A stretch of DNA of 64,000 nucleotides from an uncultured Treponemataceae bacterium (lineage in GTDB: Bacteria; Spirochaetota; Spirochaetia; Treponematales; Rectinemataceae). Below the pieces are notes generated by a model. It made no database searches, was not told where the DNA came from, and saw nothing but the letters and a program-made list of their open reading frames with translations. The DNA lies in NCBI GenBank assembly GCA_964468155.1, contig CAYXUF010000002.1, positions 37,465-101,464 on the forward strand, in the 5' to 3' direction. Made by a program: the position numbers and the translations under genes. Below are positions 31,578-64,000 of the stretch, piece after piece; position 1 is the first letter of the stretch; each line of letters starts with the position of its first letter.

Positions 31578-31655
31578 TCAGGCGCCGTAAACCCCATCGA
31601 TGATCTCGCAATTCTTGGCGGCGAGGGTCTTGTCCACCCAGGAGCGGTCGGCCAT
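31578..31655 (-). pseudogene. Remnant copy of the 3' end of the RraA-family gene (25 codons plus stop)
   Basis: Translates as MADRSWVDKTLAAKNCEIIDGVYGA, compared with ...TADRSWVDKTLAAKNCEIIDAVYCK at the end of gene 34001..34699. 59 bp are identical (31595-31653 = 34018-34076). Confidence 0.75.
31595..31653. repeat. Direct repeat, left copy (59 bp perfect)
   Basis: Identical to 34018-34076 at an offset of 2423 bp. Weaker similarity extends through the stop codon and terminator hairpin (about 31541-31594 versus 33961-34017). Confidence 0.9.
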
Positions 31656-34000: not shown

Positions 34001-34699
34001 TCACTTGCAGTAGACGGCATCGATGATCTCGCAATTCTTGGCGGCGAGGGTCTTGTCCACCCAGGAGCGGTCGGCCGTGCCGTTCGCTGCGGCGGTCACC
34101 TTGGCCGCGTCGTTGGCCGAGAATTTGCCCGCGACAGCCAGTATCTCGGCCGCGTCCCGCCTGGGGATCACGATGACGCCGTCGGCGTCTCCCAGGATGA
34201 TGTCGCCCGGCTCAATCTGGATGCCGCCGCAGGAAATGGGAACGTTCACTTCGCCAGGGCCTTCCTTGTAAGGCCCGCCCGGCGTCGTCCCTGTCCCGTA
34301 GACCGGGGTGTCCATCTTCGAGATCGCGTCGATGTCGCGTATCGGGCCGTCGAAAACGAGGCCGGTTACGCCCTTGTAGCGGGCGTAGGTCAGGATGATC
34401 TCGCCCACGAGGGACTGGCTGCGGTCCCCGCCGTTCGACACGATGATCACGTCGCCGGGGCCAGCCATGTTGAGGGCTTTATGGATCATGAGGTTGTCGC
34501 CGGGCCTCGCCTTCACCGTCAGGGCGACGCCCGCCATGATCGGCGCGGCAGGGGAAGAGAGAAGCTTGATCTGCGAGGAGAGGGCGCAAAGCCTGCCCAT
34601 GCAGTCGGCTACATTGGCCGGCGGAAGGGATTTGAACGCTTCCACCAGCTCGGGCGCGGGAAGATCCCGCTTCAAGAATACTCTGAATCCTACGGACAT
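34001..34699 (-). CDS. RraA-family protein (RNase E regulator A / HMG-CHA aldolase-like fold)
   Basis: ANVADCMGR, GDNLMIHKA, GDVIIVSNGG and GDADGVIVIP are typical RraA/aldolase blocks. Confidence 0.85.
   Translation of the reverse strand: MSVGFRVFLKRDLPAPELVEAFKSLPPANVADCMGRLCALSSQIKLLSSPAAPIMAGVALTVKARPGDNLMIHKALNMAGPGDVIIVSNGGDRSQSLVGEIILTYARYKGVTGLVFDGPIRDIDAISKMDTPVYGTGTTPGGPYKEGPGEVNVPISCGGIQIEPGDIILGDADGVIVIPRRDAAEILAVAGKFSANDAAKVTAAANGTADRSWVDKTLAAKNCEIIDAVYCK
34018..34076. repeat. Direct repeat, right copy (59 bp perfect), inside the intact RraA-family gene
   Basis: Identical to 31595-31653. Confidence 0.9.
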
Positions 34700-53568: not shown

Positions 53569-53713
53569 CTTTTATTTTCGCAGAGTCGAAGCCGCGTTAA
53601 AACAGGCCTATCCACATCAGCGGGAATATGGTTCTGCGCTAGTTGGGTCGGTCTTATTGAATGGTTCTGGCTTTGAATAAAAATATATCGATGAGTGGAG
53701 TGAAACTGGACTA

Positions 53714-53883
53714 TGGGCCCACCTGGACTTGAACCAGGGACCAACGGATTATGAGAGGAGGACAGCTCGCATCCCTAGACATCTATAGTAATATCCAGAA
53801 TCGATTTATTGGAAGAGTCGGTATCCCAAGAAATCCACACAAAGCTGGAGAAATATCTAAGTATTCTACAAGTTTTTCTACAA
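53714..53883 (-). repeat. Island-boundary repeat, copy 1: tRNA(CAU) 3' half plus about 125 bp island arm
   Basis: The reverse complement reads CTCATAA-TCCGT-TGGTC-CCTGG-TTCAAGT-CCAGG-TGGGCCC-A (anticodon loop, stem, variable loop, T-arm, acceptor strand, discriminator). There is no matching 5' half. About 80% identical to 56745-56914, with a 33-bp perfect core (53723-53755). Confidence 0.7.
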
Positions 53884-54038
53884 GAGCCACCTCTTTTGTA
53901 GACTTTTTTAATCTATTTTCTGCAATTTGCTCGCTTCAAAGATGTGGAATTCCCCCGGTTTGCAGATTTTGCTTGACAATTATAACGATCAAATTTAACA
54001 TTAAGCGTAATGAATATACTTTCTTAAAGGAGCTTAAA

Positions 54039-54971
54039 ATGCTTAGGAAAAAACCTGCTCTTATCTTTATGGTTCTCCTGGCTACAGTTGTTTATATAGC
54101 TCCTGTCTTTTCTCAGGATGCTGTTGCGATAACAGATGTTCCATTCGCTACATACCTCTCTAGGGTACAACCTAACTTGATGTTTCAGATACTCAACAGG
54201 GCAGCGGTTGAGTTTGGCAAAGAAAAACTGAAGGGTACTGTCTATGAGGGTTTGCCGGTATTGTCCCGTCAATCCATAACCTGGGCGGGCTTCCGCGGTC
54301 CGAGCGACTTTTTGAGCCTTCCTGCTGGCAATTTGACAATCGACACCATTTCGAAAATTTATCGCTATAGCAACACTGTTCAGGCCTTGAAATTGAATGG
54401 CAAACAGATTGTTGAGTGGCTTGAGTTTTCAGCAGGGACTTATAATCAGATCGATCCAGACAAAGCTGAAGACCAGCAATTGATCAATTACAAATTTGAT
54501 AGTCACCTTATGGATCATTGGTGGGATATCACCTATCAGTACGACGTTACAAAACCTCTGGGCAGCAGGGTCGTATATGCGAAATACCAAGGTAAGCCAC
54601 TCGTGGAAGATATGGCTTTTATCGTCATGACAGATAATTACCGAGCCGGCGGCGGCGGCGGATTACCCAATGCAGTTCCTGCAAATATTGTCATGAAATG
54701 GGATGTAAATTTCAGGACAGTAGTTGCCGATTATCTCAAATCCGTATCAGGCAAAATGCCTGAACTAGTTATCAACTGGTCTATCAAGCCCGTTAAGACC
54801 AAGGGAAAAGTGCTTTTAAAAACTGGAGACCAGTGGGGCGTACCGGTCATAGATTATATGGAAATAGCCGCCAAGTTGAAGCTCGAACCAGTCGATCATA
54901 TTCAGTACTTTGGAACCGATGATGTCTGGGGATTGTTTGAGATTGATCTCTCGAAGGTGGCTACGCCATAA
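54039..54971 (+). CDS. Secreted stand-alone 5'-nucleotidase C-terminal (substrate-binding) domain protein
   Basis: Start trimmed to the ATG at 54039 (AAAGGAG RBS; signal peptide MLRKKPALIFMVLLATVVYIAPVFS). TDNYRAGGGGGLP is the UshA/CpdB C-domain motif. No metallophosphatase N-domain is present. Confidence 0.75.
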   Translation: MLRKKPALIFMVLLATVVYIAPVFSQDAVAITDVPFATYLSRVQPNLMFQILNRAAVEFGKEKLKGTVYEGLPVLSRQSITWAGFRGPSDFLSLPAGNLTIDTISKIYRYSNTVQALKLNGKQIVEWLEFSAGTYNQIDPDKAEDQQLINYKFDSHLMDHWWDITYQYDVTKPLGSRVVYAKYQGKPLVEDMAFIVMTDNYRAGGGGGLPNAVPANIVMKWDVNFRTVVADYLKSVSGKMPELVINWSIKPVKTKGKVLLKTGDQWGVPVIDYMEIAAKLKLEPVDHIQYFGTDDVWGLFEIDLSKVATP

Positions 54972-55080
54972 ATTGCCCAGCAATTTCCAAAGAAGCTCTA
55001 TGAAGTTTTAAAGACTTCGGATGCAGCACTCTCGTTGTGAGGCGGGGGTGCTGTTTTAATTGAACAAGGAGCAAATAGGA

Positions 55081-56628
55081 ATGAAAACATCAAATTATAA
55101 CCGATACGCAATTTTTATTGTTCTCTTTTCGGTACTTGTATTTTCTGGCGTCGCTCAAGATCAGCCTTTTTTAAATTTGAAGCCAAGACAGATTGTGCTT
55201 ACATATCAAAACAACCCTCAAACAAACATCACCATTACCTGGCGAACCGATCAAAAAGGAGAAAAGTCAATCGCGCTATTTTCTCCCGCCTCTGGAGCAG
55301 AGATTCAGGAGTATGCACAACAAGAAGCCGAAACCTATACTTTCAAAGAGACGAAGGCCTGGATACACTCCGTTGAGTTGACGAATCTAGTTCCTGAGAA
55401 GACCTATTGGGTTATTCTCCAGACCGATGATCAGAAAAGCAAAAAATTCAGTTTTAGGACAGCCTCTAACCAACCACGCAATATAACTTTTGTAATGGGC
55501 GCCGACGCTCAACATCTGCGCACGGAGATGCCAATTATTCGCCAAGTCATTAGTGGGGTCGCTAAAGAGAACCCCGATTTCTTTGTGTATTCTGGCGATT
55601 TTGTCAATGCCGAACTGAGTGAGTATGAATGGGATTTGTTTTTCGATCTTGCGGACGAGTTATTGATAACCGACGAAGGAAGAAGGATACCTATCGTTCC
55701 AGCTATTGGCAACCACGAAGTAGTCAATGGTTACGGCGGTAACCAAACACTTGCTCCTTTTTATTTTCAGAGATTTAAACTACCCGAGCCTAAGAATTAC
55801 TATTCGATTCTATATAGCCAAGACCTGCTAATTATTTCCCTTGATTCCAACCATTCATCTCCCGTAGCTGGAGTTCAGGCTGCCTGGCTCGCACAGACGC
55901 TAGAGAGATATAAGGATGCCAAGTGGAAGATCGTTCACTATCACGATGGTGCATGGTGGGGGAATGAAAGCATGTATGTGAATATGCGCGCTTTCTGGAT
56001 ACCACTATTCGAAAAATACGGTGTCACGCTTGTACATAATGGCCACTCGCATTCGTATAAAAGAACTGCTCAGATAAGCAATATTGGATCGTATTCAAAA
56101 GAGATAGATAAAATTGTCGTGGATGGTTTAGCAAAAGCAAAAAAGGATTTCGATCCTACAAAGAAATATGCACCGCCATTACAACGGAATCTGATGAAAT
56201 TGTCGCGTGGCGACTGGCAGTCTACAGGGTTTTCTTCCTTATTCGAAGGTTTGAAGGAAATGGTCTATATGCTGTCCCTCTATGTGATTCAATCAGGCGA
56301 AGTAACAAAAGAGAAAGTGTACGATCAAATGAGTACTACCAAGCTATACTCAGATTATTGGGCTCAAGTTCTTTCACCGGACAATAAAAGCCAATTGATT
56401 GATAAGACTGCGGGTATTGTCTATCTCACAGGAGGTGGATTGGGTGCCACGATGGATGCGCAAAGCCCCAATGCAGAAAGATGGTGGATAGAAGAAACAA
56501 AATCAGAATATCACTACCGAAAAGTGACGCTGGATCTGTTGAGTGGCGAATTACAGATAGAGCCGAAGTTCTACGATCCGATAAGGAATACATGGGAAAA
56601 CAAGGATGTGATAAGGATACAAAAATAA
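55081..56628 (+). CDS. Secreted purple-acid-phosphatase-like metallophosphoesterase
   Basis: Signal peptide, an Fn3-like PAP N-domain (ITWRT), then GDF..N, GNHE and VHNGHSHSY metallophosphatase blocks. AAGGAG RBS before the ATG at 55081. Confidence 0.8.
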   Translation: MKTSNYNRYAIFIVLFSVLVFSGVAQDQPFLNLKPRQIVLTYQNNPQTNITITWRTDQKGEKSIALFSPASGAEIQEYAQQEAETYTFKETKAWIHSVELTNLVPEKTYWVILQTDDQKSKKFSFRTASNQPRNITFVMGADAQHLRTEMPIIRQVISGVAKENPDFFVYSGDFVNAELSEYEWDLFFDLADELLITDEGRRIPIVPAIGNHEVVNGYGGNQTLAPFYFQRFKLPEPKNYYSILYSQDLLIISLDSNHSSPVAGVQAAWLAQTLERYKDAKWKIVHYHDGAWWGNESMYVNMRAFWIPLFEKYGVTLVHNGHSHSYKRTAQISNIGSYSKEIDKIVVDGLAKAKKDFDPTKKYAPPLQRNLMKLSRGDWQSTGFSSLFEGLKEMVYMLSLYVIQSGEVTKEKVYDQMSTTKLYSDYWAQVLSPDNKSQLIDKTAGIVYLTGGGLGATMDAQSPNAERWWIEETKSEYHYRKVTLDLLSGELQIEPKFYDPIRNTWENKDVIRIQK

Positions 56629-56744
56629 AGTTGATAGGTTTATCCTGCGAAGCTGTCTAGATTTCTGTCTACTGACAGTCACTGGAATTCGTTTCAGGTG
56701 TTTTTGCACTAAAATATAAGTGCTTTTCTCATAAACAATTACTA

Positions 56745-56914
56745 TGAGCCCTGCTGGACTTGAACCAGGGACCAACGGATTATGAGCGGAGGACAACTCA
56801 CTCCCTTATATACATATAGTAATATCCAGATTCGATTTATTGGAAGAGTGTGCATCCAAAGAAATCCGTATAAAGCTTGCGATATATCTAAGTATTCTAC
56901 AAGTTCTTCTACAG
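56745..56914 (-). repeat. Island repeat, copy 2: tRNA(CAU) 3'-half-like sequence plus arm
   Basis: The 33-bp core 56754-56786 is identical to copy 1. The acceptor-proximal 9 nt differ (TGAGCCCTG versus TGGGCCCAC) and would break T-stem pairing. Confidence 0.7.
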
Positions 56915-57066
56915 ATGTGGCGCACCCCATCTACTATCTGAGGTGGAAATATTAGGAAGAGACTTTATGCATCCAGTAGGTTAGCTCGGTGTTTTCCCAC
57001 GAATAATGGCGAAATGCGAAATAAATGGTTTCAATCTTCATGTTAGAAATCCCTATTATAGATCAA

Positions 57067-58182
57067 CTAGCATGAGTGCATGATGGGAAGAGAGCGTTTC
57101 AAATCATTAAGGTAGGAATTGTGAGGATGCAACTTCTCATGCTGGAGCCGGCCAAGCACGATCGCGGGTGCAATACCGCATTCTTGCGCAAAGTGCTCTA
57201 TCGATTCGCGTGTAAAATTATCGCCTTTACGGGTAAAAGACTCCCACGCTACATCTGGTATGAGAAAACTCCTTGAAAAAGCATCCGCTTCCTTTTCGAT
57301 TTCACTTTGAGGCCCGTCTGATTCTATAAAGAGCTTCACACTCCCATGGTGGATAATGTGTGCGGCTTCATGAAAGAAAGAGAACCAGAAGATATCCTCT
57401 GTCTTCCCCTTGCAGGAGAAGACCATGAGGGGACGATCTTTGGAGAGCCATCGCACCGCGCCATTCACGTGAGCACCTTTTATAAGAGGTACAAAGGCAA
57501 CTCGAACGCCGCATGAACCACATAAGTTGATTAAAGAATTAACAATGTCTGTCGTTTCTAGCCGAGTAAGTTCCTTGGCTTCTTGGATTACTTTCTTGAA
57601 GCGGCCTTTATCGAAGGGAGGGCATTCCAGCTTCAGCGCTTCGAGCTCCGCTTTTCGGAGATAGGTAGCCAGTGAGAAACTATCAGAACTATGTTTTTGA
57701 GAATCCCGTAGCGTAGCTTCGAGGTTCATTTTCCCCCAGATAGCTTCCCAATCATCTGGCCCATTAACGCCGAAGTAAGTAAGTAAACAATCAAGAATCA
57801 ACTCTGGTCGGTGCCTCTCAGGAAGCCAGCCTTTATTCATCATGTCACGAATGCAGGAAAAGTTTTTAAGCCAAGGAACAAGACTTGTGAGCCTCTCGGC
57901 TTCCTTGAGCCGTGCTACTGACTCATCATACTCCCTTTGACGGTTGTTCCAAAATGCAGCGGAGACACCGAAGACTCGTTCGAGCTGGATAGCCGTATCG
58001 GGGGTTATGGCGGTCTTCCCCTTAAGGATTTCATTGATAGTCTTTCGCGGCCTACCAATGCGCTCACATAGTTCCGCCTGCGTCATTCGTCGCTCTTCGA
58101 GAAGTTCTGCGAGTGTATCACCAGGAAGGCTTACGATTTCTGGATTGTACTCGTTAGAAAATTCATTCGTCATGATAGTCAA
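57067..58182 (-). CDS. HigA-like XRE-HTH antitoxin fused to an ImmA/IrrE (M78) zinc metallopeptidase domain
   Basis: HTH MTQAELCERIGRPRKTINEILKGKTAITPDTAIQLERVFG. HExxH motif in FFHEAAHIIHH with a downstream E (EKEAD). Overlaps the toxin gene stop. Confidence 0.85.
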   Translation of the reverse strand: MTIMTNEFSNEYNPEIVSLPGDTLAELLEERRMTQAELCERIGRPRKTINEILKGKTAITPDTAIQLERVFGVSAAFWNNRQREYDESVARLKEAERLTSLVPWLKNFSCIRDMMNKGWLPERHRPELILDCLLTYFGVNGPDDWEAIWGKMNLEATLRDSQKHSSDSFSLATYLRKAELEALKLECPPFDKGRFKKVIQEAKELTRLETTDIVNSLINLCGSCGVRVAFVPLIKGAHVNGAVRWLSKDRPLMVFSCKGKTEDIFWFSFFHEAAHIIHHGSVKLFIESDGPQSEIEKEADAFSRSFLIPDVAWESFTRKGDNFTRESIEHFAQECGIAPAIVLGRLQHEKLHPHNSYLNDLKRSLPIMHSC

Positions 58183-58468
58183 TCACCTCAAGGATGAGAA
58201 CTGCGGTCACCTTTTCTAATTCAAGATGGCCATTTATTGTAAGTGGAACAGGGTTCCCAAGTGGACGATACACAAGTCGATATGGCTCTTCGATATGACA
58301 ACCCCACGTACCTGCTCGGTTCGCTTTTAAGATATGGTGCTTCCCCGGCAACAATACTAGGTCAGCCATAGAAGGAGCTGCTTTCATGTCGTCGAGCCTC
58401 AACTTAAGCTTTCCGGTTGCTTTACCACAACGCTTCCGTATAGAACCATTATCATAGCTGATGTCCAT
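58163..58468 (-). CDS. HigB-like (plasmid maintenance killer protein family) toxin
   Basis: 101 aa. LRLDDMKAAPSMADLVLLPGKHHILKANRAGTWGCHIEEPYRLVY fits the HigB-like toxin pattern. The toxin-first gene order is typical of HigBA. Confidence 0.7.
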   Translation of the reverse strand: MDISYDNGSIRKRCGKATGKLKLRLDDMKAAPSMADLVLLPGKHHILKANRAGTWGCHIEEPYRLVYRPLGNPVPLTINGHLELEKVTAVLILEVIDYHDE

Positions 58469-58509
58469 CTTGTCAAGAGATTTATTAACCCAATGGGTTA
58501 ATAAATCAT

Positions 58510-61500
58510 CTACTCCTTTTGTTTTGTAAAATACTGTTGGACAAGTTCTTGAGCATGTATAGAGAGTTCTCCCGATTCCTCAGTAGTAATTAGCCTGCTA
58601 GGGAAGTTCTTTTCGTACCATCGCTGCTTCTCCTCCCAGTGGGCACGATACTTATCTTGCTCCAATAGTCCAAGATGCTCCCAGTAGTACTCCTGGCCAT
58701 GCCACAAAATGGTGAAGTCAGGAAGATAGAAAGAACCGTCGCGGGCATATAGGGGCTTTTCGTACCAAAATGGGATTTCTCGGTCAAAGAGCATATTTGC
58801 GATGATCACTTCTGACTTAGAGCGAACCATGACATTTGCAAGGCTTCGATGGATACGATATTTCTCGAGAAAGCCCTCAACACGAAGTGCTGCAAGCTCG
58901 TTAGGAACAATGTGCACACCAAAAAGTGAAGAGTTAATGGATTCAAGATGCGAGCTTTCAGGTCGATACATCTTGAGAAGAGGGCCGATATCGCCTTCGA
59001 TGAGAACTGTCGAATGGCGCGTAGCTCTAGTTAAGCCAGTATACAGAAGCTCGGGAGAAAGTAAGGCAGGCTTCTTGGGGATAACAAAGTATACTTGGCA
59101 AAATTCACTCCCTTGAGCCTTATGGACGGATATCGCATAAGCGAGCTCAAGATTGTCCTCAGGCTTTTCACTTTTCTTATCGTAATTGACGGCAAGATGC
59201 TCTTTGCGCGAGAACTTGACCGCGAAACGTTCAAATTTAAAACGCGGCCATAACCATTTGCTCGCCTCATAACCGACAGGTTCCACCATGCCAAGTTCAC
59301 CATTGAAAACATTGACTTTTTCTTGGTTTCGAGTTCGCCAATTGAATGCCATGATTGGCTCACTTTTCCCTCGATTACGGATCTGTATCACTTTATCGAA
59401 GATCGTAATACCGCCTATTGTACCAAGGCGCTTAATATTTCGCGATTGTGCTGCCGACTGGAGTGCAAGATTGAGCGGATTTGTGCCGTAATCCTCATTG
59501 CGATAAGGCGAAAGGACCTGCTGGTAGAGAGGATCAGGAGTTTCTCTCCCTTGAGACCATGCAGCCTTCCAGAGCTCCCAAGGCTTATCAGAGTCGAACT
59601 CTTTCCCTGTTTCTTCCTGCATATCTGCGACTATTTGGGCGAGAAGCTTTTCTTGAAGATCTTGGCCATTTTTCCAGTAAATAACACGTAAATCCTTATC
59701 TACCACTCCGTCAGGAGGCAAATCCTGAAGCCGTTGGAAGAAAAGCTCCGCCGCAAGGCAGTCGTCTTCGCTCTTGTCATTCTGGTTTGATTTTCGCTTG
59801 AAGAGTTCAGCTAGATCGAGAATACCTGTCCCGCAGTCGTTTACACGGTTCTCAAGCTGGCGCAGGTTAATGGAAAGCTCTCCGACATTCTCTACAAGGT
59901 CTCTCTTGAGCCACGCGATGAGATCCGCAAAAATTCGACCTCGCCCTATCGGTGGCAATTGATTTGGATCGCCAACCAGAATGAGACGCTGTACAGCATT
60001 CCAGTTAATTGCTCGAACTAGGCAGGCGAAGAGAGAGAGATCAAGCATAGATGATTCGTCGATAATGAAAGTGGAGATCCCTTCTTCTTTCTTCCCTCCG
60101 TTGCGGCGATAGGTCATGTTTTCGCGGAGCCATCCGCGTTTAGCCAGAAATGAATGGATAGTAAGCGCTTCCTTGCCAGTTTTATCCCTCATCCTATCGG
60201 CGGCCTTGCCCGTTGGCGCGAGTAGGCAGAAACTCGTACCTTGGCCATGGGCTTTCTCGATCGCCTTGATAATTGACTCGACAACCGTCGTCTTACCTGT
60301 CCCTGCGCCACCACAAATCACGGCAACAGGCTTTCGGAAGACTTGATCGCAGATTGAAGCCTGAGCCTCGATCGCTTTCGCGTAGTCAGCGGCAGCATTG
60401 CGCGCTAGAGAACAATCCTGTTTGGTGAGGTAAGCGATCCAGTCAATCGGCCTAAGTGGTGATTTAAATGTAATGTCAGGTAATCCTGCAAGCGCTTTGA
60501 GTTGCCTTTCCACATCGCGCTCGTCTTCGAACACTTCACGAAGATAGAGGTAATCCCGGTCGTTATATCTAGTAAAAACCAGAGCCTGCTCGAGACTTTT
60601 CTTGTCGACGCTCAAATAGCGTTCTGAAAACATCGTTTTCTTCCATTCCGGCTGGAGACTAAGCCTACGGTTGACTTCCTGGAGTACAACTCCTGAAGGG
60701 CGGAAGCTGTGCTTGGTTTCTCTCTTGAGAGCTTCGACGAGTAGGGCTCTGAGTCGTCGCCAGTCGTCGAGTTCCCAGTCATCAACACGACCAATACTAG
60801 GAGAGGGATAGAGACCATGCTCTACCTTGCTGTAAGAAATGCGGTCATCAGGGCCGGAGCCCTCGTATTGCTCGGCAAGGATGAAGGGGTTCCCCTCTAT
60901 CTCTTGAAGCGAAGCCTCTACACTCCAATCTGAGCGCTCTTTGGATAGAATAGTCTCGAACTGTTCCTTTAAAAGGTCAAAACGTGGAAATATACCCGAG
61001 AGAAGCCTACGTTCATCATCGTCCTTCAACTTCCAAGTTCGCTGTACTTTAGATGCGTCCTTTTCAGAAATACTCCAGGGAGTCTGAGCTCCAGGATTTT
61101 CATTAAGCCATTCTACTACTGCGTTCTTGAACTCGACCTCATGTCCTTGCGCAGTCGCTTCCTTGAATCGGACAATACCCTCCCCAAGGCCAAGCATATC
61201 GAGAATCCGGCCAAAGCCTGGATAGAGCCCCCTGCTAGACCATAGTTCTGCAAGAAGTCCATTAAGCCATTCAAGTCGATGCGTCCAATTCTCCGAACTG
61301 TCATGGAGTTCGTCCCGAAGATAAGTAGCCACTTCAATGAAACGCTCAATAATAGAGAGAGCGTCGTCATCAGAAAGCTGCCTTGAAGCATACTTGAAGT
61401 TTCTCTCGTTATCCGGAAAAACAGCCAGTCGTTCAAGTACGTCTGGACGATCATTGTATAGATGATACGGAATTCGAAAGCCTTGGTTGGCGTAGTCCAT

Positions 61501-62106
61501 AGTAACCGGGCGTTCCCACACGAAGCCACCATACTTATCGATATCAGACTGAGGGAGATTGGGATAATGGTAGAGTTCGCCGACCACCGAAATTCGGCTA
61601 ACACCTATAAGGATGTAATGTTTGCTGTCTTCAGATGAAAATGGATTGCTGTAGTTGGCATATAGAAATAATAGGCTTTTACCGATTTCTACAGCATCGA
61701 AATGTGCCTTCACTGCCTCCAAACGTTTTTTCGCGTCGTAGTTTCCATCAGTCTTGACGGCTTCGTCATACATAGCCTCGTAGGGCCATGTACATACAGT
61801 ATAGGGAGGGACATCCCATAAAACGCGTTCCCCGCCAGTAAAGAAATCTGGTGGATCATCGAACATGGTCGCCGGTTCAGGATCGAAGGCATGCGCACTG
61901 AACCCACAAGTGACATCCTGTGTTAGGAGGGCTATGCGTTGTCCAGCGACGCTTGCCTCCCAAGAGCTGTTCTTTCCCTTCGCTATCTTATCACCAGGAT
62001 AGGAATGGGCTCCCTGACAATGGGTATTACATGCGGGATTACGACAGATGCAGCCATTCCAACCGTTGTCGTGCCATGCAACTCTTGCTGAAATGTGTAT
62101 CGCCAT
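58510..62106 (-). CDS. 1198-aa fusion: unknown Cys-containing N-terminal region (aa 1-590), RecD/TraA-like SF1 helicase (aa 590-1040), Vsr/DUF559-like PD-(D/E)xK nuclease (aa 1085-1160)
   Basis: Walker A GGAGTGKTT (K605), Walker B FIIDESSM, LVGDPNQLPPIG, SVHKAQGSEF and YTGLTRAT. The C-terminal SKSE(1099)...LPD(1130)F...YWE(1143)H resembles Vsr-like endonuclease motifs. The N-terminus is ARVAWHDNGWNGCICRNPACNTHC. Confidence 0.85.
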   Translation of the reverse strand: MAIHISARVAWHDNGWNGCICRNPACNTHCQGAHSYPGDKIAKGKNSSWEASVAGQRIALLTQDVTCGFSAHAFDPEPATMFDDPPDFFTGGERVLWDVPPYTVCTWPYEAMYDEAVKTDGNYDAKKRLEAVKAHFDAVEIGKSLLFLYANYSNPFSSEDSKHYILIGVSRISVVGELYHYPNLPQSDIDKYGGFVWERPVTMDYANQGFRIPYHLYNDRPDVLERLAVFPDNERNFKYASRQLSDDDALSIIERFIEVATYLRDELHDSSENWTHRLEWLNGLLAELWSSRGLYPGFGRILDMLGLGEGIVRFKEATAQGHEVEFKNAVVEWLNENPGAQTPWSISEKDASKVQRTWKLKDDDERRLLSGIFPRFDLLKEQFETILSKERSDWSVEASLQEIEGNPFILAEQYEGSGPDDRISYSKVEHGLYPSPSIGRVDDWELDDWRRLRALLVEALKRETKHSFRPSGVVLQEVNRRLSLQPEWKKTMFSERYLSVDKKSLEQALVFTRYNDRDYLYLREVFEDERDVERQLKALAGLPDITFKSPLRPIDWIAYLTKQDCSLARNAAADYAKAIEAQASICDQVFRKPVAVICGGAGTGKTTVVESIIKAIEKAHGQGTSFCLLAPTGKAADRMRDKTGKEALTIHSFLAKRGWLRENMTYRRNGGKKEEGISTFIIDESSMLDLSLFACLVRAINWNAVQRLILVGDPNQLPPIGRGRIFADLIAWLKRDLVENVGELSINLRQLENRVNDCGTGILDLAELFKRKSNQNDKSEDDCLAAELFFQRLQDLPPDGVVDKDLRVIYWKNGQDLQEKLLAQIVADMQEETGKEFDSDKPWELWKAAWSQGRETPDPLYQQVLSPYRNEDYGTNPLNLALQSAAQSRNIKRLGTIGGITIFDKVIQIRNRGKSEPIMAFNWRTRNQEKVNVFNGELGMVEPVGYEASKWLWPRFKFERFAVKFSRKEHLAVNYDKKSEKPEDNLELAYAISVHKAQGSEFCQVYFVIPKKPALLSPELLYTGLTRATRHSTVLIEGDIGPLLKMYRPESSHLESINSSLFGVHIVPNELAALRVEGFLEKYRIHRSLANVMVRSKSEVIIANMLFDREIPFWYEKPLYARDGSFYLPDFTILWHGQEYYWEHLGLLEQDKYRAHWEEKQRWYEKNFPSRLITTEESGELSIHAQELVQQYFTKQKE

Positions 62107-62431
62107 TTTATGATCCTTTATATAGTTATCTAAGAATAGAGTACCCTAATCTATTTGTGACAACAAGCTAGGATATCCACTTTTAACCGCAATATACTCC
62201 TTAACGCTTACCATTGGTCGCGTGTCTGATATTATTACGAGTTACACCTATATAGTAGCCTCTCCCCGATTCAATAGACCAATGGCTTTTTCTGGAACAG
62301 CTTTAACAGCCATCCTCTATTAAAATTTGCATTCCCGTACCTTCCTCTCCTCCAATTACCGATTACTCACGATTTCGAGGGTTGTTTGTGGCGGACTTTA
62401 TATTAGTCAGGTATGAAATTGGAGGGTCCAG

Positions 62432-62671
62432 ATGGAAGGGAAAGAGACTTGGCATCTGTTAAACGTCGAGGAAGCAGCTAGATTTCTTGGGATAGCCATC
62501 CCGACGTTACTACAAAAGAGGCCCGACGTTCCACGCATTCATATTGGCAGACGGGTCCTATTCGATCCTCGCGACCTCGAGGAGTATATTCGCGCCCATC
62601 GAAGCGTTGCTTCGAAAGCCGACAGTTCCACGAATAGCCGAATCAGAACCAATGAGGCTGAATCAGCCTAA
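62432..62671 (+). CDS. Excisionase-family (MerR-like) helix-turn-helix protein
   Basis: LLNVEEAARFLGIAIPTLLQKRPDVPRIHIGRRVLFDPRDLEEYI matches the Xis/AlpA-type HTH pattern. Confidence 0.7.
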   Translation: MEGKETWHLLNVEEAARFLGIAIPTLLQKRPDVPRIHIGRRVLFDPRDLEEYIRAHRSVASKADSSTNSRIRTNEAESA

Positions 62672-62718
62672 GGAGGGTATATGCCGTAGCTAAGATTGAA
62701 GAATTGGGAGGTCAAGCA

Positions 62719-63192
62719 ATGATTTGGGATGGGAACTTGGAACAATCGTCACGCCAGGATGCCTCTAGTGAGGGGGTGACCCAGAGACTGACACAGCTCA
62801 GGGAGAAGAAAGGAGCTGAGGGGAGTTCCATCTCAAACTCGCAACATAGGGTTTCTGACAGGCTACTTGCAGTAACGTGCAGTGACGCCGGGTTTGTCAG
62901 ACAGGGGATATCTGTAGAGCAAGTAATCGAATACTTGGAGACACAGAGCTTCCCTGAGTTAATCCGCCTTCATGAGGATTCTATAGAATCCTCGATCAGG
63001 CGGCTCCCAACGCAGAAGGAGAACCGGAATCCCACCGGTCTTCTCTGGAGCGGGGAGAGGCGCATAGCTTCTAGACGTATAAGAACTCTCTGTCTGAAGA
63101 AGAAAACTACCGAGACTATTATTCCTACTACCGCCACCACCACCGCCCGAGGGATATCTCTCCCCACAAGACCAACAAGACCACAAGACTAG
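62719..63192 (+). CDS. Hypothetical protein with a Thr/Pro-rich C-terminus
   Basis: GGGAGG RBS 7 nt before the ATG at 62719. I recognise no family. Confidence 0.4.
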   Translation: MIWDGNLEQSSRQDASSEGVTQRLTQLREKKGAEGSSISNSQHRVSDRLLAVTCSDAGFVRQGISVEQVIEYLETQSFPELIRLHEDSIESSIRRLPTQKENRNPTGLLWSGERRIASRRIRTLCLKKKTTETIIPTTATTTARGISLPTRPTRPQD

Positions 63193-63259
63193 ATGACCGT
63201 GTTCCTAACCCCCTCCGGTGGTGATTTCACCATCGGAGGGATTCTTTTGGAGGCATGTT

Positions 63260-64000
63260 ATGAAAGCATCAGATTGCCGTCACTCCCAGAAGTCAGGCAG
63301 AAAGAGCCATGTTCATAAAGGAAAAGAGAAGCTTGAGACCCTTCTGAAGGAACATCGGTCAGGAGGAGCCAGTAATGTTCAAGCCGCTCCCCTCCAGGGG
63401 TTCTTATATACGAGGTTCCCGGCGCTAGACCTCCTTACGGGCGGGAAGGGCCTTCCATATGGTACTTCCGTAGTCTGCTATGGTGAGTCAGGTTTTGGCG
63501 TAACTACTCTGCTCCTTACGCTCGCTCGATCCGTCGTTTTCAACACAGGGAAGACTGTTCACTTCTTTGATGGACAAGATGGCTTTCGCACAGCAGAAAT
63601 GATGGGTCTCTTTGAAAAGCCCCTCAATGTTTCCAGCCAATTCGTCTATAAGCGACTCGGGCGCGTCTCTGATCTGGTCGGCGTAATGGATGACTTCTTC
63701 TCTTCAAATGATGAGCTCGCGATCATAGATGGGCTCGATTTCCTCTCAACGCTCTCAGGTGATGAGCGCCCTTGCACCACGAGTCCTGAACTATCCGGGT
63801 CGGTCGATGGGCTCTATGCTCATGTCTTCAAATGGATCCGCGCCCGACTACTTGAGACTGGAAAGATTGTCGTGATAAGTACGAGCTTACGTAATCAATC
63901 TAGCGCCCATTCTTCCGGCACATGCGAATTGGTTCCTGCCTGCCCTAGTGTTATGAAGTACCTTGCGACAATTCAATGCAGGTTGATCAAGAATCTATCG
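63260..64000 (+). CDS. RecA/KaiC-like ATPase-fold protein with a lysine-less P-loop (5' part; runs off the window; not on the ORF track)
   Basis: Own translation: GGAGG, 6 nt, ATG. FPALDLLTGGKGLPYGTSVVCYGESGFGVTTLLLTLA resembles the RecA L..GG.P.G....YG..GSGKTT block but has V in place of K. Walker-B-like ELAIIDGLD. Confidence 0.55.
   Translation, partial: MKASDCRHSQKSGRKSHVHKGKEKLETLLKEHRSGGASNVQAAPLQGFLYTRFPALDLLTGGKGLPYGTSVVCYGESGFGVTTLLLTLARSVVFNTGKTVHFFDGQDGFRTAEMMGLFEKPLNVSSQFVYKRLGRVSDLVGVMDDFFSSNDELAIIDGLDFLSTLSGDERPCTTSPELSGSVDGLYAHVFKWIRARLLETGKIVVISTSLRNQSSAHSSGTCELVPACPSVMKYLATIQCRLIKNLS

Follow-up and report, generated by a model that had tools for sequence, protein, structure and literature searches.

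Direct repeats bearing half of a tRNA-Ile2(CAU) gene as probable attR-type sites of a composite island in an uncultured spirochaete

What are two direct repeats of about 170 bp, each opening with the 3' half of a tRNA gene, doing at and just inside the point where the base composition of a spirochaete contig abruptly changes? The question is raised by a stretch of 64,000 nucleotides, referred to here as the window (positions 37465-101464 of contig CAYXUF010000002.1, hereafter C2), from an uncultured Treponemataceae bacterium represented by a 2.55-Mb metagenome-assembled genome (MAG) of 115 contigs with 58.5% GC. C2 continues for 17.6 kb past the window; positions there are given as window equivalents, that is, the coordinate in locus L001 plus 64000. 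The GC content is 0.59-0.61 until 53 kb and 0.41-0.51 between 54 kb and the end of the window, with the shift from ~59% to ~43% at 53713 falling exactly at the first tRNA fragment, and it stays low, somewhat variably, up to the end of C2, which holds ~91 kb of host-type DNA and 28 kb of island. We consider it very probable that the repeats are attR-type attachment (att) sites of a composite, accreted island of ~28 kb, inserted into the one tRNA-Ile2(CAU) gene that was detected in this MAG. Read along the minus strand, the order is intact tRNA, integrase-side (P') arm, integrase gene, module B, P arm of B, inner tRNA fragment (frag2), module A, P arm of A, outer tRNA fragment (frag1) and host flank. 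A previous sequence-only reading of the window had proposed that the repeats mark the edge of an island and subdivide it, which agrees with the position of frag1 at the GC drop and of frag2 between modules A and B.

A repeat search of the window returned the two copies as a single family, 53710-53882 and 56741-56913, 173 nt long and 86% identical at a spacing of 3031 (BLASTN E = 3e-52). On the minus strand, copy 1 reads CTCATAA-TCCGT-TGGTC-CCTGG-TTCAAGT-CCAGG-TGGGCCC-A and ends at 53714. The outer att core, frag1 (53712..53755, minus strand), is a displaced tRNA-Ile2(CAU) 3' half running from the anticodon loop to the discriminator A at 53714, plus 2 nt, and forms the left edge of the island; the inner, hybrid core, frag2 (56745..56786, minus strand), consists of a tRNA-Ile2 3' half whose T-arm is chimeric. 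Both copies share the 33-bp perfect core CTGGACTTGAACCAGGGACCAACGGATTATGAG, and copy 2 departs from copy 1 near the acceptor end only (CCAGC-AGGGCTC versus CCAGG-TGGGCCC). Copy 1 has no 5' half, and ARAGORN calls no tRNA within the window. Compared with the 3' half of the intact gene described below, frag1 is identical at 44 of 44 positions and frag2 at 41 of 44, and the block of identity opens at the first nucleotide of the anticodon loop. Both fragments (53714 and 56745) and the intact tRNA(CAU) are on the minus strand, so that the displaced fragments stand in direct orientation. In the whole assembly the tRNA half occurs three times, namely in the two repeat copies and the intact gene, and the adjoining arm just twice, which excludes a dispersed repeat family. 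The sequence-only reading is thus borne out in its description of the pair: a tRNA(CAU) 3' half lacking its 5' half at the GC drop, and a second copy 3031 bp further in with a 33-bp perfect core, about 125 bp of roughly 80% similar adjoining sequence and altered acceptor-proximal nucleotides.

Where, then, is the gene from which the halves derive? At its terminus, C2 passes from the P' arm into the 44-nt core and 12 nt unique to the tRNA 5' half, and it overlaps the start of contig C38 by 55 identical nt. ARAGORN finds no tRNA on C2 and an intact tRNA(CAU) on C38 at c[2,75], minus strand; the overlap of the two contigs places this gene at window-equivalent 81609-81682 on the minus strand, beyond 64 kb, where it had been predicted. 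E. coli genes annotated as tRNA-Ile match the intact tRNA at 84-85% identity. Since the genome also contains two further CAU tRNAs of different sequence, as well as TilS (TIGR02432, 169 bits, above the curated cut-off), the target is tRNA-Ile2, a predicted lysidine-dependent tRNA with a CAU anticodon, in keeping with the earlier guess of a tRNA-Ile2/Met-like gene such as E. coli ileX. One tRNA-Ile2 gene was detected in the genome. Other genomes of the order (G018 C5:1109323-1160518, G030 C1:524258-526114 and G027 C61:9611-9813) have additional, partial tRNA-Ile2 3' halves on the strand of the intact gene, at distances of 0.13 to 51 kb from it. These extra copies suggest that tRNA-Ile2 is a recurrent integration hotspot in the order, with frequent small remnants.

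An integrase, likewise predicted to lie beyond the window, adjoins the tRNA gene. The intact gene (L001:16145-17497, minus strand) encodes a tyrosine integrase of 450 aa (PF00589, E = 7e-15), begins ~110 bp from the tRNA's 3' terminus and points in the same direction. The R, HxxR, H and Y motifs are legible in its translation, and Pfam recognised no arm-binding N-terminal domain in it. Of the order's 401 genomes, 148 contain homologues, at most 49% identical over the whole protein. Among the 29 best homologue loci, 23 have, in the ~1.5-kb flanks that were fetched, a tRNA gene placed as it is here, with Cys, Phe, Leu, Lys, Thr, Gln, Tyr, Arg and CAU tRNAs represented; this integrase family targets tRNA genes. 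In six of ten homologous loci, the spacer between tRNA and integrase carries a doublet of 9-13 nt, spaced 12-13 nt. Among these spacers, the tandem doublets of L033, L037, L038, L040 and L041 are locus specific in sequence, three of them resembling TTnCTnACA, and arm-type sites may co-vary with the integrase.

What lies next to each tRNA half is an arm of ~130 bp. The P arm of module A, an element-derived attR arm (53756..53885, plus strand), contains an invariant block, TCGATTTATTGGAAGAGT, and a near-palindrome, GATTTATTGG-N14-CCAAGAAATC, and ends in putative arm-type integrase sites, TTCTACAAG, at 53864 and 53876. The P arm of module B (56787..56916, plus strand) has its putative sites at 56895 (TTCTACAAG) and 56907 (TTCTACAG). 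Each pair is a TTCTACAR doublet with 12-bp spacing, and the spacer that separates the tRNA from the integrase start codon holds a third doublet, at 81517/81529. The three doublets share one orientation and flank the anticodon-loop position on either side at a distance of ~110 nt. Across the genome this doublet is confined to the three att arms of the island, the motif itself having a background of 0.045 per kb. If the doublets are arm-type sites, as we putatively read them, both repeats are of the attR type, each comprising a core and a P arm, and attL is located at the intact tRNA.

Other features of the arms may also bear on recombination. The near-palindrome is found within 53800-53850 and 56831-56881, the same intervals that contain AATCGATTTATTG, which fits the IHF consensus, WATCAANNNNTTR, with one mismatch. 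Both the near-palindrome and AATCGATTTATTG are candidates for sites at which an excisionase or nucleoid protein acts. On the integrase side, the P' doublet (window-equivalent 81495-81540, L001:17495-17540) stands ~20 nt upstream of the integrase start, beside the Shine-Dalgarno sequence. Given this position, binding of the integrase to its own P' doublet could autoregulate its expression.

Is the arm shared with other genomes? Searches of the order's genomes, species-representative genomes, metagenome contigs and viral contigs yielded five copies overall, three of them beyond this genome: in G115, in G225 and, truncated, on metagenome contig Ga0172375_10213224. Viral contigs contained no copy of the P arm, and a degenerate version of the doublet pattern gave only chance-level, AT-rich matches there. 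The two arms of the island share 82% identity, and their identity with the arm of G115, which belongs to another genus, is 81-84% (81% for the arm of module A). In three of the five copies the arm abuts the tRNA half in the same register. G115, a MAG deposited as Spirochaetes bacterium, has an intact tRNA, followed by 3.65 kb of low-GC DNA without an integrase and then by an arm and a tRNA half, an arrangement that closely parallels module A. In this locus (C189; L023:10369-14200), the direct repeat runs ~100 bp past the tRNA 3' end into a diverged copy of the host flank that lies downstream of the tRNA. The cargo of the G115 island includes a truncated hsdM gene and an open reading frame (ORF) of 566 aa; the hsdM fragment was considered as a tie to module B and dismissed, being merely 23% identical. 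In G225, the arm (C16:63986-64127; L015:1495-1642) stands alone, bordered by the 3' end of mfd on one side and by a serine-hydrolase gene on the other, without a tRNA part and without a GC shift, and the similarity ends at the anticodon-loop position. No matching direct repeat was found within 40 kb of this orphan arm.

For the inner scar, an alignment (A1) of ten intact tRNA-Ile2 genes of related genomes and the attR fragment of G115 separates two variants. Variant I, found in this host and most others, has the T-stem CCTGG/CCAGG and the acceptor 3' strand TGGGCCC, and variant II, found in G115 and G021, has GCTGG/CCAGC and AGGGCCC. Frag2 combines the variant-I 5' strand CCTGG with CCAGC-AGGGCTC, a 3' strand and acceptor resembling variant II. 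It differs from the intact tRNA at three positions, all of them within its last 13 nt and two in the variant-II state, a clustering that argues against random decay. Either the attP of module A contained an imperfect copy of the tRNA, or the scar dates from an earlier host whose tRNA was of variant II. As for the position of strand exchange, the start of the identity block, the doublets' symmetric positions and the junction seen in the G225 arm favor a crossover at or near the anticodon loop as the most likely; the chimeric T-arm of frag2 would fit an exchange in the T-loop instead.

From this anatomy we infer how the sites would function, how the island was built and how it might move. In the model that we propose, a heterobivalent tyrosine integrase would recombine attP and the tRNA gene, with the anticodon loop or its vicinity as the most likely place of crossover. 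Each repeat would then consist of a tRNA 3' half, carried by the element to rebuild the gene, and an arm of ~130 bp with its integrase-site doublet. Two such integrations, by two related elements and in this host or an earlier one, would yield the observed order. The sequence-only reading had interpreted the repeats as attL/attR-type scars left by two successive integrations of related elements into one tRNA gene. The scars of related elements in one tRNA gene are retained here, given the identities among the two arms and that of G115; the attL/attR pairing is replaced by two attR-type sites, with attL at the intact tRNA; and succession in this host shares its final layout with the arrival of a ready-made composite, the two being identical in this respect. 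Module A would be expected to move only together with module B, via recombination between attL and the outer attR. Such an excision of A and B through frag1 is deduced to restore the native tRNA gene. Since the inner scar is chimeric, excision of B only, through frag2, is deduced to produce a tRNA-Ile2 mismatched at A7.A66 and C49.C65 and with a wobble pair, G2.U71, pairings taken directly from the sequence, whose minimum-free-energy fold differs from the cloverleaf.

The two modules differ markedly in size and content. Module A (3 kb, 53.7-56.7 kb) carries two secreted phosphatase-type genes only, based on Pfam and NCBIfam searches of both ORFs, and neither ORF matches an integration or transfer gene, consistent with the recombinase-free first module of the earlier description, which saw in it a possibly stranded cargo segment that may still be lost if the two repeats recombine. 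Cargo gene 1 (54039..54971, plus strand) encodes a secreted protein with a 5'-nucleotidase C-terminal domain (PF02872, E = 6e-20), with NCBIfam models for 2',3'-cyclic-nucleotide phosphodiesterase/nucleotidase covering its C-terminal part only. Cargo gene 2 (55081..56628, plus strand) encodes a purple-acid-phosphatase-like metallophosphoesterase (PF16656 and PF00149). Between cargo and inner scar lies a spacer of 112 nt (56633..56744), the place at which module A should have its P' arm. One candidate relic of that arm, a GTCTAGAT/GTCTACTG pair with 12-nt spacing ~70 nt from frag2, was considered and rejected, the 112-nt region being no closer to the P' arm of B than shuffled or control sequences; a diverged host-flank copy of the kind seen in G115 was rejected likewise (z = 0.8, insignificant). 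The two-gene pair recurs in an unrelated metagenome contig of 344 kb (ENA ERZ21831265 ctg81815l, L063:7000-13000), where the phosphatase-like protein is 89% identical. There the cassette forms a patch of 40-49% GC within DNA of ~57% GC, and the homology covers the promoter and the two genes only. It lies next to defence genes, its neighbors being SNF2, HicAB, TIR and HTH-M78 genes, and no tRNA, arm or recombinase was found near it.

Module B, ~25 kb long, contains the integrase, an excisionase-like gene, a type I restriction-modification system, SIR2-HerA, PDC-S68 and a toxin-antitoxin pair. Its part in the window (56917..64000), annotated with Pfam and PADLOC, begins with an HTH-M78 antitoxin-like gene (57067-58182, minus strand) and a HigB-like gene with a weak match (58163-58468, minus strand). 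These are followed by a gene for a PDC-S68 helicase of 1198 aa (58510-62106, minus strand), an end-to-end match to the PADLOC family, and by a candidate excisionase, or recombination directionality factor (62432..62671, plus strand; PF12728 HTH_17, E = 4e-7, above the curated cut-off). Beyond the window, the module continues with a second tyrosine recombinase, an ankyrin-repeat protein, hsdM, a Bro-N protein, hsdS, SIR2, HerA, hsdR and the integrase, the HerA-type ATPase being paired with SIR2. The restriction-modification operon (L001:6203-16038, window-equivalent 70203-80038) nests defence genes, in the order hsdM, Bro-N/PDC-S13, hsdS, SIR2, HerA, hsdR. The second recombinase, Xer-like and 318 aa long (L001:1583-2539, window-equivalent 65583-66539), lies between ORFs without a family match; it could belong to a nested element or have a role in resolution or inversion. 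Pfam models for type IV secretion systems and relaxases had no match among the main ORFs of module B, several ORFs of the module being unannotated, and for want of recognised conjugation or relaxase genes we do not class module B as an integrative and conjugative element (ICE) or an integrative and mobilizable element (IME). Elsewhere in the window, a 70-nt direct repeat (31584-31653 and 34007-34076, 94% identical) brackets a segment of 2.4 kb, a further small cassette between repeats, with no tRNA involved.

Could a single integration have produced the same picture? A local duplication of the attR end, with later insertion of the phosphatase cassette between the two copies, would explain why module A amounts to little more than a two-gene cassette that also stands alone elsewhere, as a low-GC patch without att sequences, and why it has no recognisable P' arm. 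The arms of the island, however, differ from each other just as much as either differs from the arm of another genus, which places them in separate lineages rather than in a recent local duplication, and yet frag1 still matches the intact half at every position. In addition, the substitutions in frag2 that cluster toward the acceptor end and in part equal variant II point to a different ancestry and not to decay after a duplication, so that we regard a duplicated attR end as very improbable. The same low probability attaches, in our judgment, to a segment of ~125 bp that is an independent element (a small RNA, a promoter or operator, or a miniature repeat) and merely happens to lie beside tRNA fragments. 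The copies lacking a tRNA part in G225 and on Ga0172375_10213224 are what such an element would predict, and its invariant 18-mer, its near-palindrome and its position upstream of the cassette promoter in module A would suit it as well. Yet there are just five copies across the genome, metagenome and viral collections, most of them in register with a tRNA half, and every tRNA-linked copy ends in the doublet that is also present beside the integrase gene. A structured RNA was specifically considered and rejected: the arm has no Rfam match at E <= 1, and the consensus fold of the five copies is weak (-5.9 kcal/mol), with compensatory pairs at 1 of 20 and without covariation.

An artefact of assembly or binning, in which a low-GC segment of another organism was joined to the host via the conserved tRNA sequence, is a natural concern in a MAG of 115 contigs, given that tRNA-Ile2 genes from different families of the order match at up to 100%. 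An independent Logan contig (SRR30464860) stops at 53710, exactly at the boundary; such a stop might be expected of a false join, and we treat it as neutral. Against an artefact, C2 reads through both inner junctions, linking its host-type DNA to the island; the exact repeat of 44 nt is shorter than the 55-nt contig overlap, and the end of C2 includes 12 nt of the tRNA 5' half; and the att anatomy is coherent, with arm doublets on both sides and an integrase adjoining the tRNA. We therefore give an artefact slightly less credence still than the two preceding explanations. Several observations nonetheless count against a composite island in tRNA-Ile2. The join of C2 and C38 depends on a 55-nt overlap of contig ends in a MAG. 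The arm occurs twice without any tRNA part, in G225 and on one metagenome contig. Module A has one recognisable arm, its 112-nt spacer showing no similarity to the P' arm of B (z = 0.7) or to the host flank (z = 0.8). Finally, no empty site was found: the left-flank gene has no orthologue in G001, G021, G010, G115 or G011 (the sole same-genus genome and the closest family members), and left flank and tRNA are adjacent in none of the genomes searched, the relatives being distant. G006 was tried as an empty site and set aside, since the flank homologue and the tRNA lie 17 kb apart there, with genes of normal GC between them.

How does a composite island in tRNA-Ile2 compare with known systems? 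A tRNA-integrated island with an accreted module lacking an integrase is a known phenomenon (PMC4383910, PMC5704250), and a tRNA gene together with a displaced fragment marks the ends of islands (PMC4383910). As in Islander-type islands, there is a regenerated tRNA gene, a displaced 3' fragment in direct orientation and an adjoining tyrosine integrase, and the identity block starting from the anticodon loop corresponds to the anticodon-centred class of sites (PMC4383910). A tandem array in that scheme has an integrase and a fragment for each member, whereas module A has a fragment without an integrase, which sets the locus apart from such arrays (PMC4383910). The PF00589 domain with its R/HxxR/H/Y motifs, the repeated motifs ~110 bp on either side of the core, in P and P' arms alike, and the excisionase-like HTH_17 gene are shared with lambda-type heterobivalent integrases; the differences are the absence of a Pfam-recognised N-terminal arm-binding domain, sites proposed from sequence alone and homologues of at most 49% identity.

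The closest likeness is to the accretion of cis-mobilizable elements (CIMEs) with ICEs or IMEs, described in PMC5704250. In the ICESt1/ICESt3-related systems of Streptococcus thermophilus (Pavlovic et al. 2004 and Bellanger et al. 2011, via PMC5704250), an integrase-less module with att ends sits beside an integrase-bearing relative at the 3' end of one gene, as here, and they likewise have a hybrid att site between the modules and composite or partial excision, which is predicted for our locus. A CIME is defined by the absence of integration and transfer genes, the retention of both attL and attR, and mobilisation in cis by an adjacent element (PMC5704250). Unlike these CIMEs, module A has one recognisable arm, the P arm, with no detectable attL-type arm. 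Without a recognisable P' arm it resembles a CIME and would fall short of the full definition, and we describe it as a putative CIME-like accreted remnant, the integrase-less partner of module B. Further differences from the CIME-ICE/IME pairs are the lack of recognised conjugation or relaxase genes in module B, the spirochaete host, the tRNA-Ile2 target and a mobilisation in cis that is here a prediction. The island CGI48 at tRNA-Trp of Shewanella putrefaciens (PMC8978831) is also a composite at a tRNA gene with a toxin-antitoxin system. It differs in element family, target tRNA and architecture, and its components were shown experimentally.

We speculate, while considering it unlikely, that module A and the 3.65-kb island of G115 could represent, instead of decayed remnants, a cassette-like class whose sole recombination site is a P arm plus a tRNA half. 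Such cassettes might be captured and shuffled in trans by integrases of the module B type, in an integron-like exchange of cargo at a tRNA gene. The mismatched scar would then penalise excision of B only, through damage to the one tRNA-Ile2 gene detected, and force helper and cassette to travel together.

What is the relevance of this locus? The current understanding of tRNA-targeting islands is unchanged by it. It shows where a 28-kb defence island of an uncultured spirochaete lineage is bounded and how it is built, and thereby gives a context for the defence and toxin-antitoxin genes of the window. It also provides a defined att set, consisting of a core, both arms and the candidate motif TTCTACAR, for a widespread family of spirochaete integrases, each of which targets a different tRNA. 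As a natural marker, the chimeric inner scar could serve to map the crossover, and it suggests that partial excision may carry a cost for tRNA-Ile2, the sole such gene detected in this genome.

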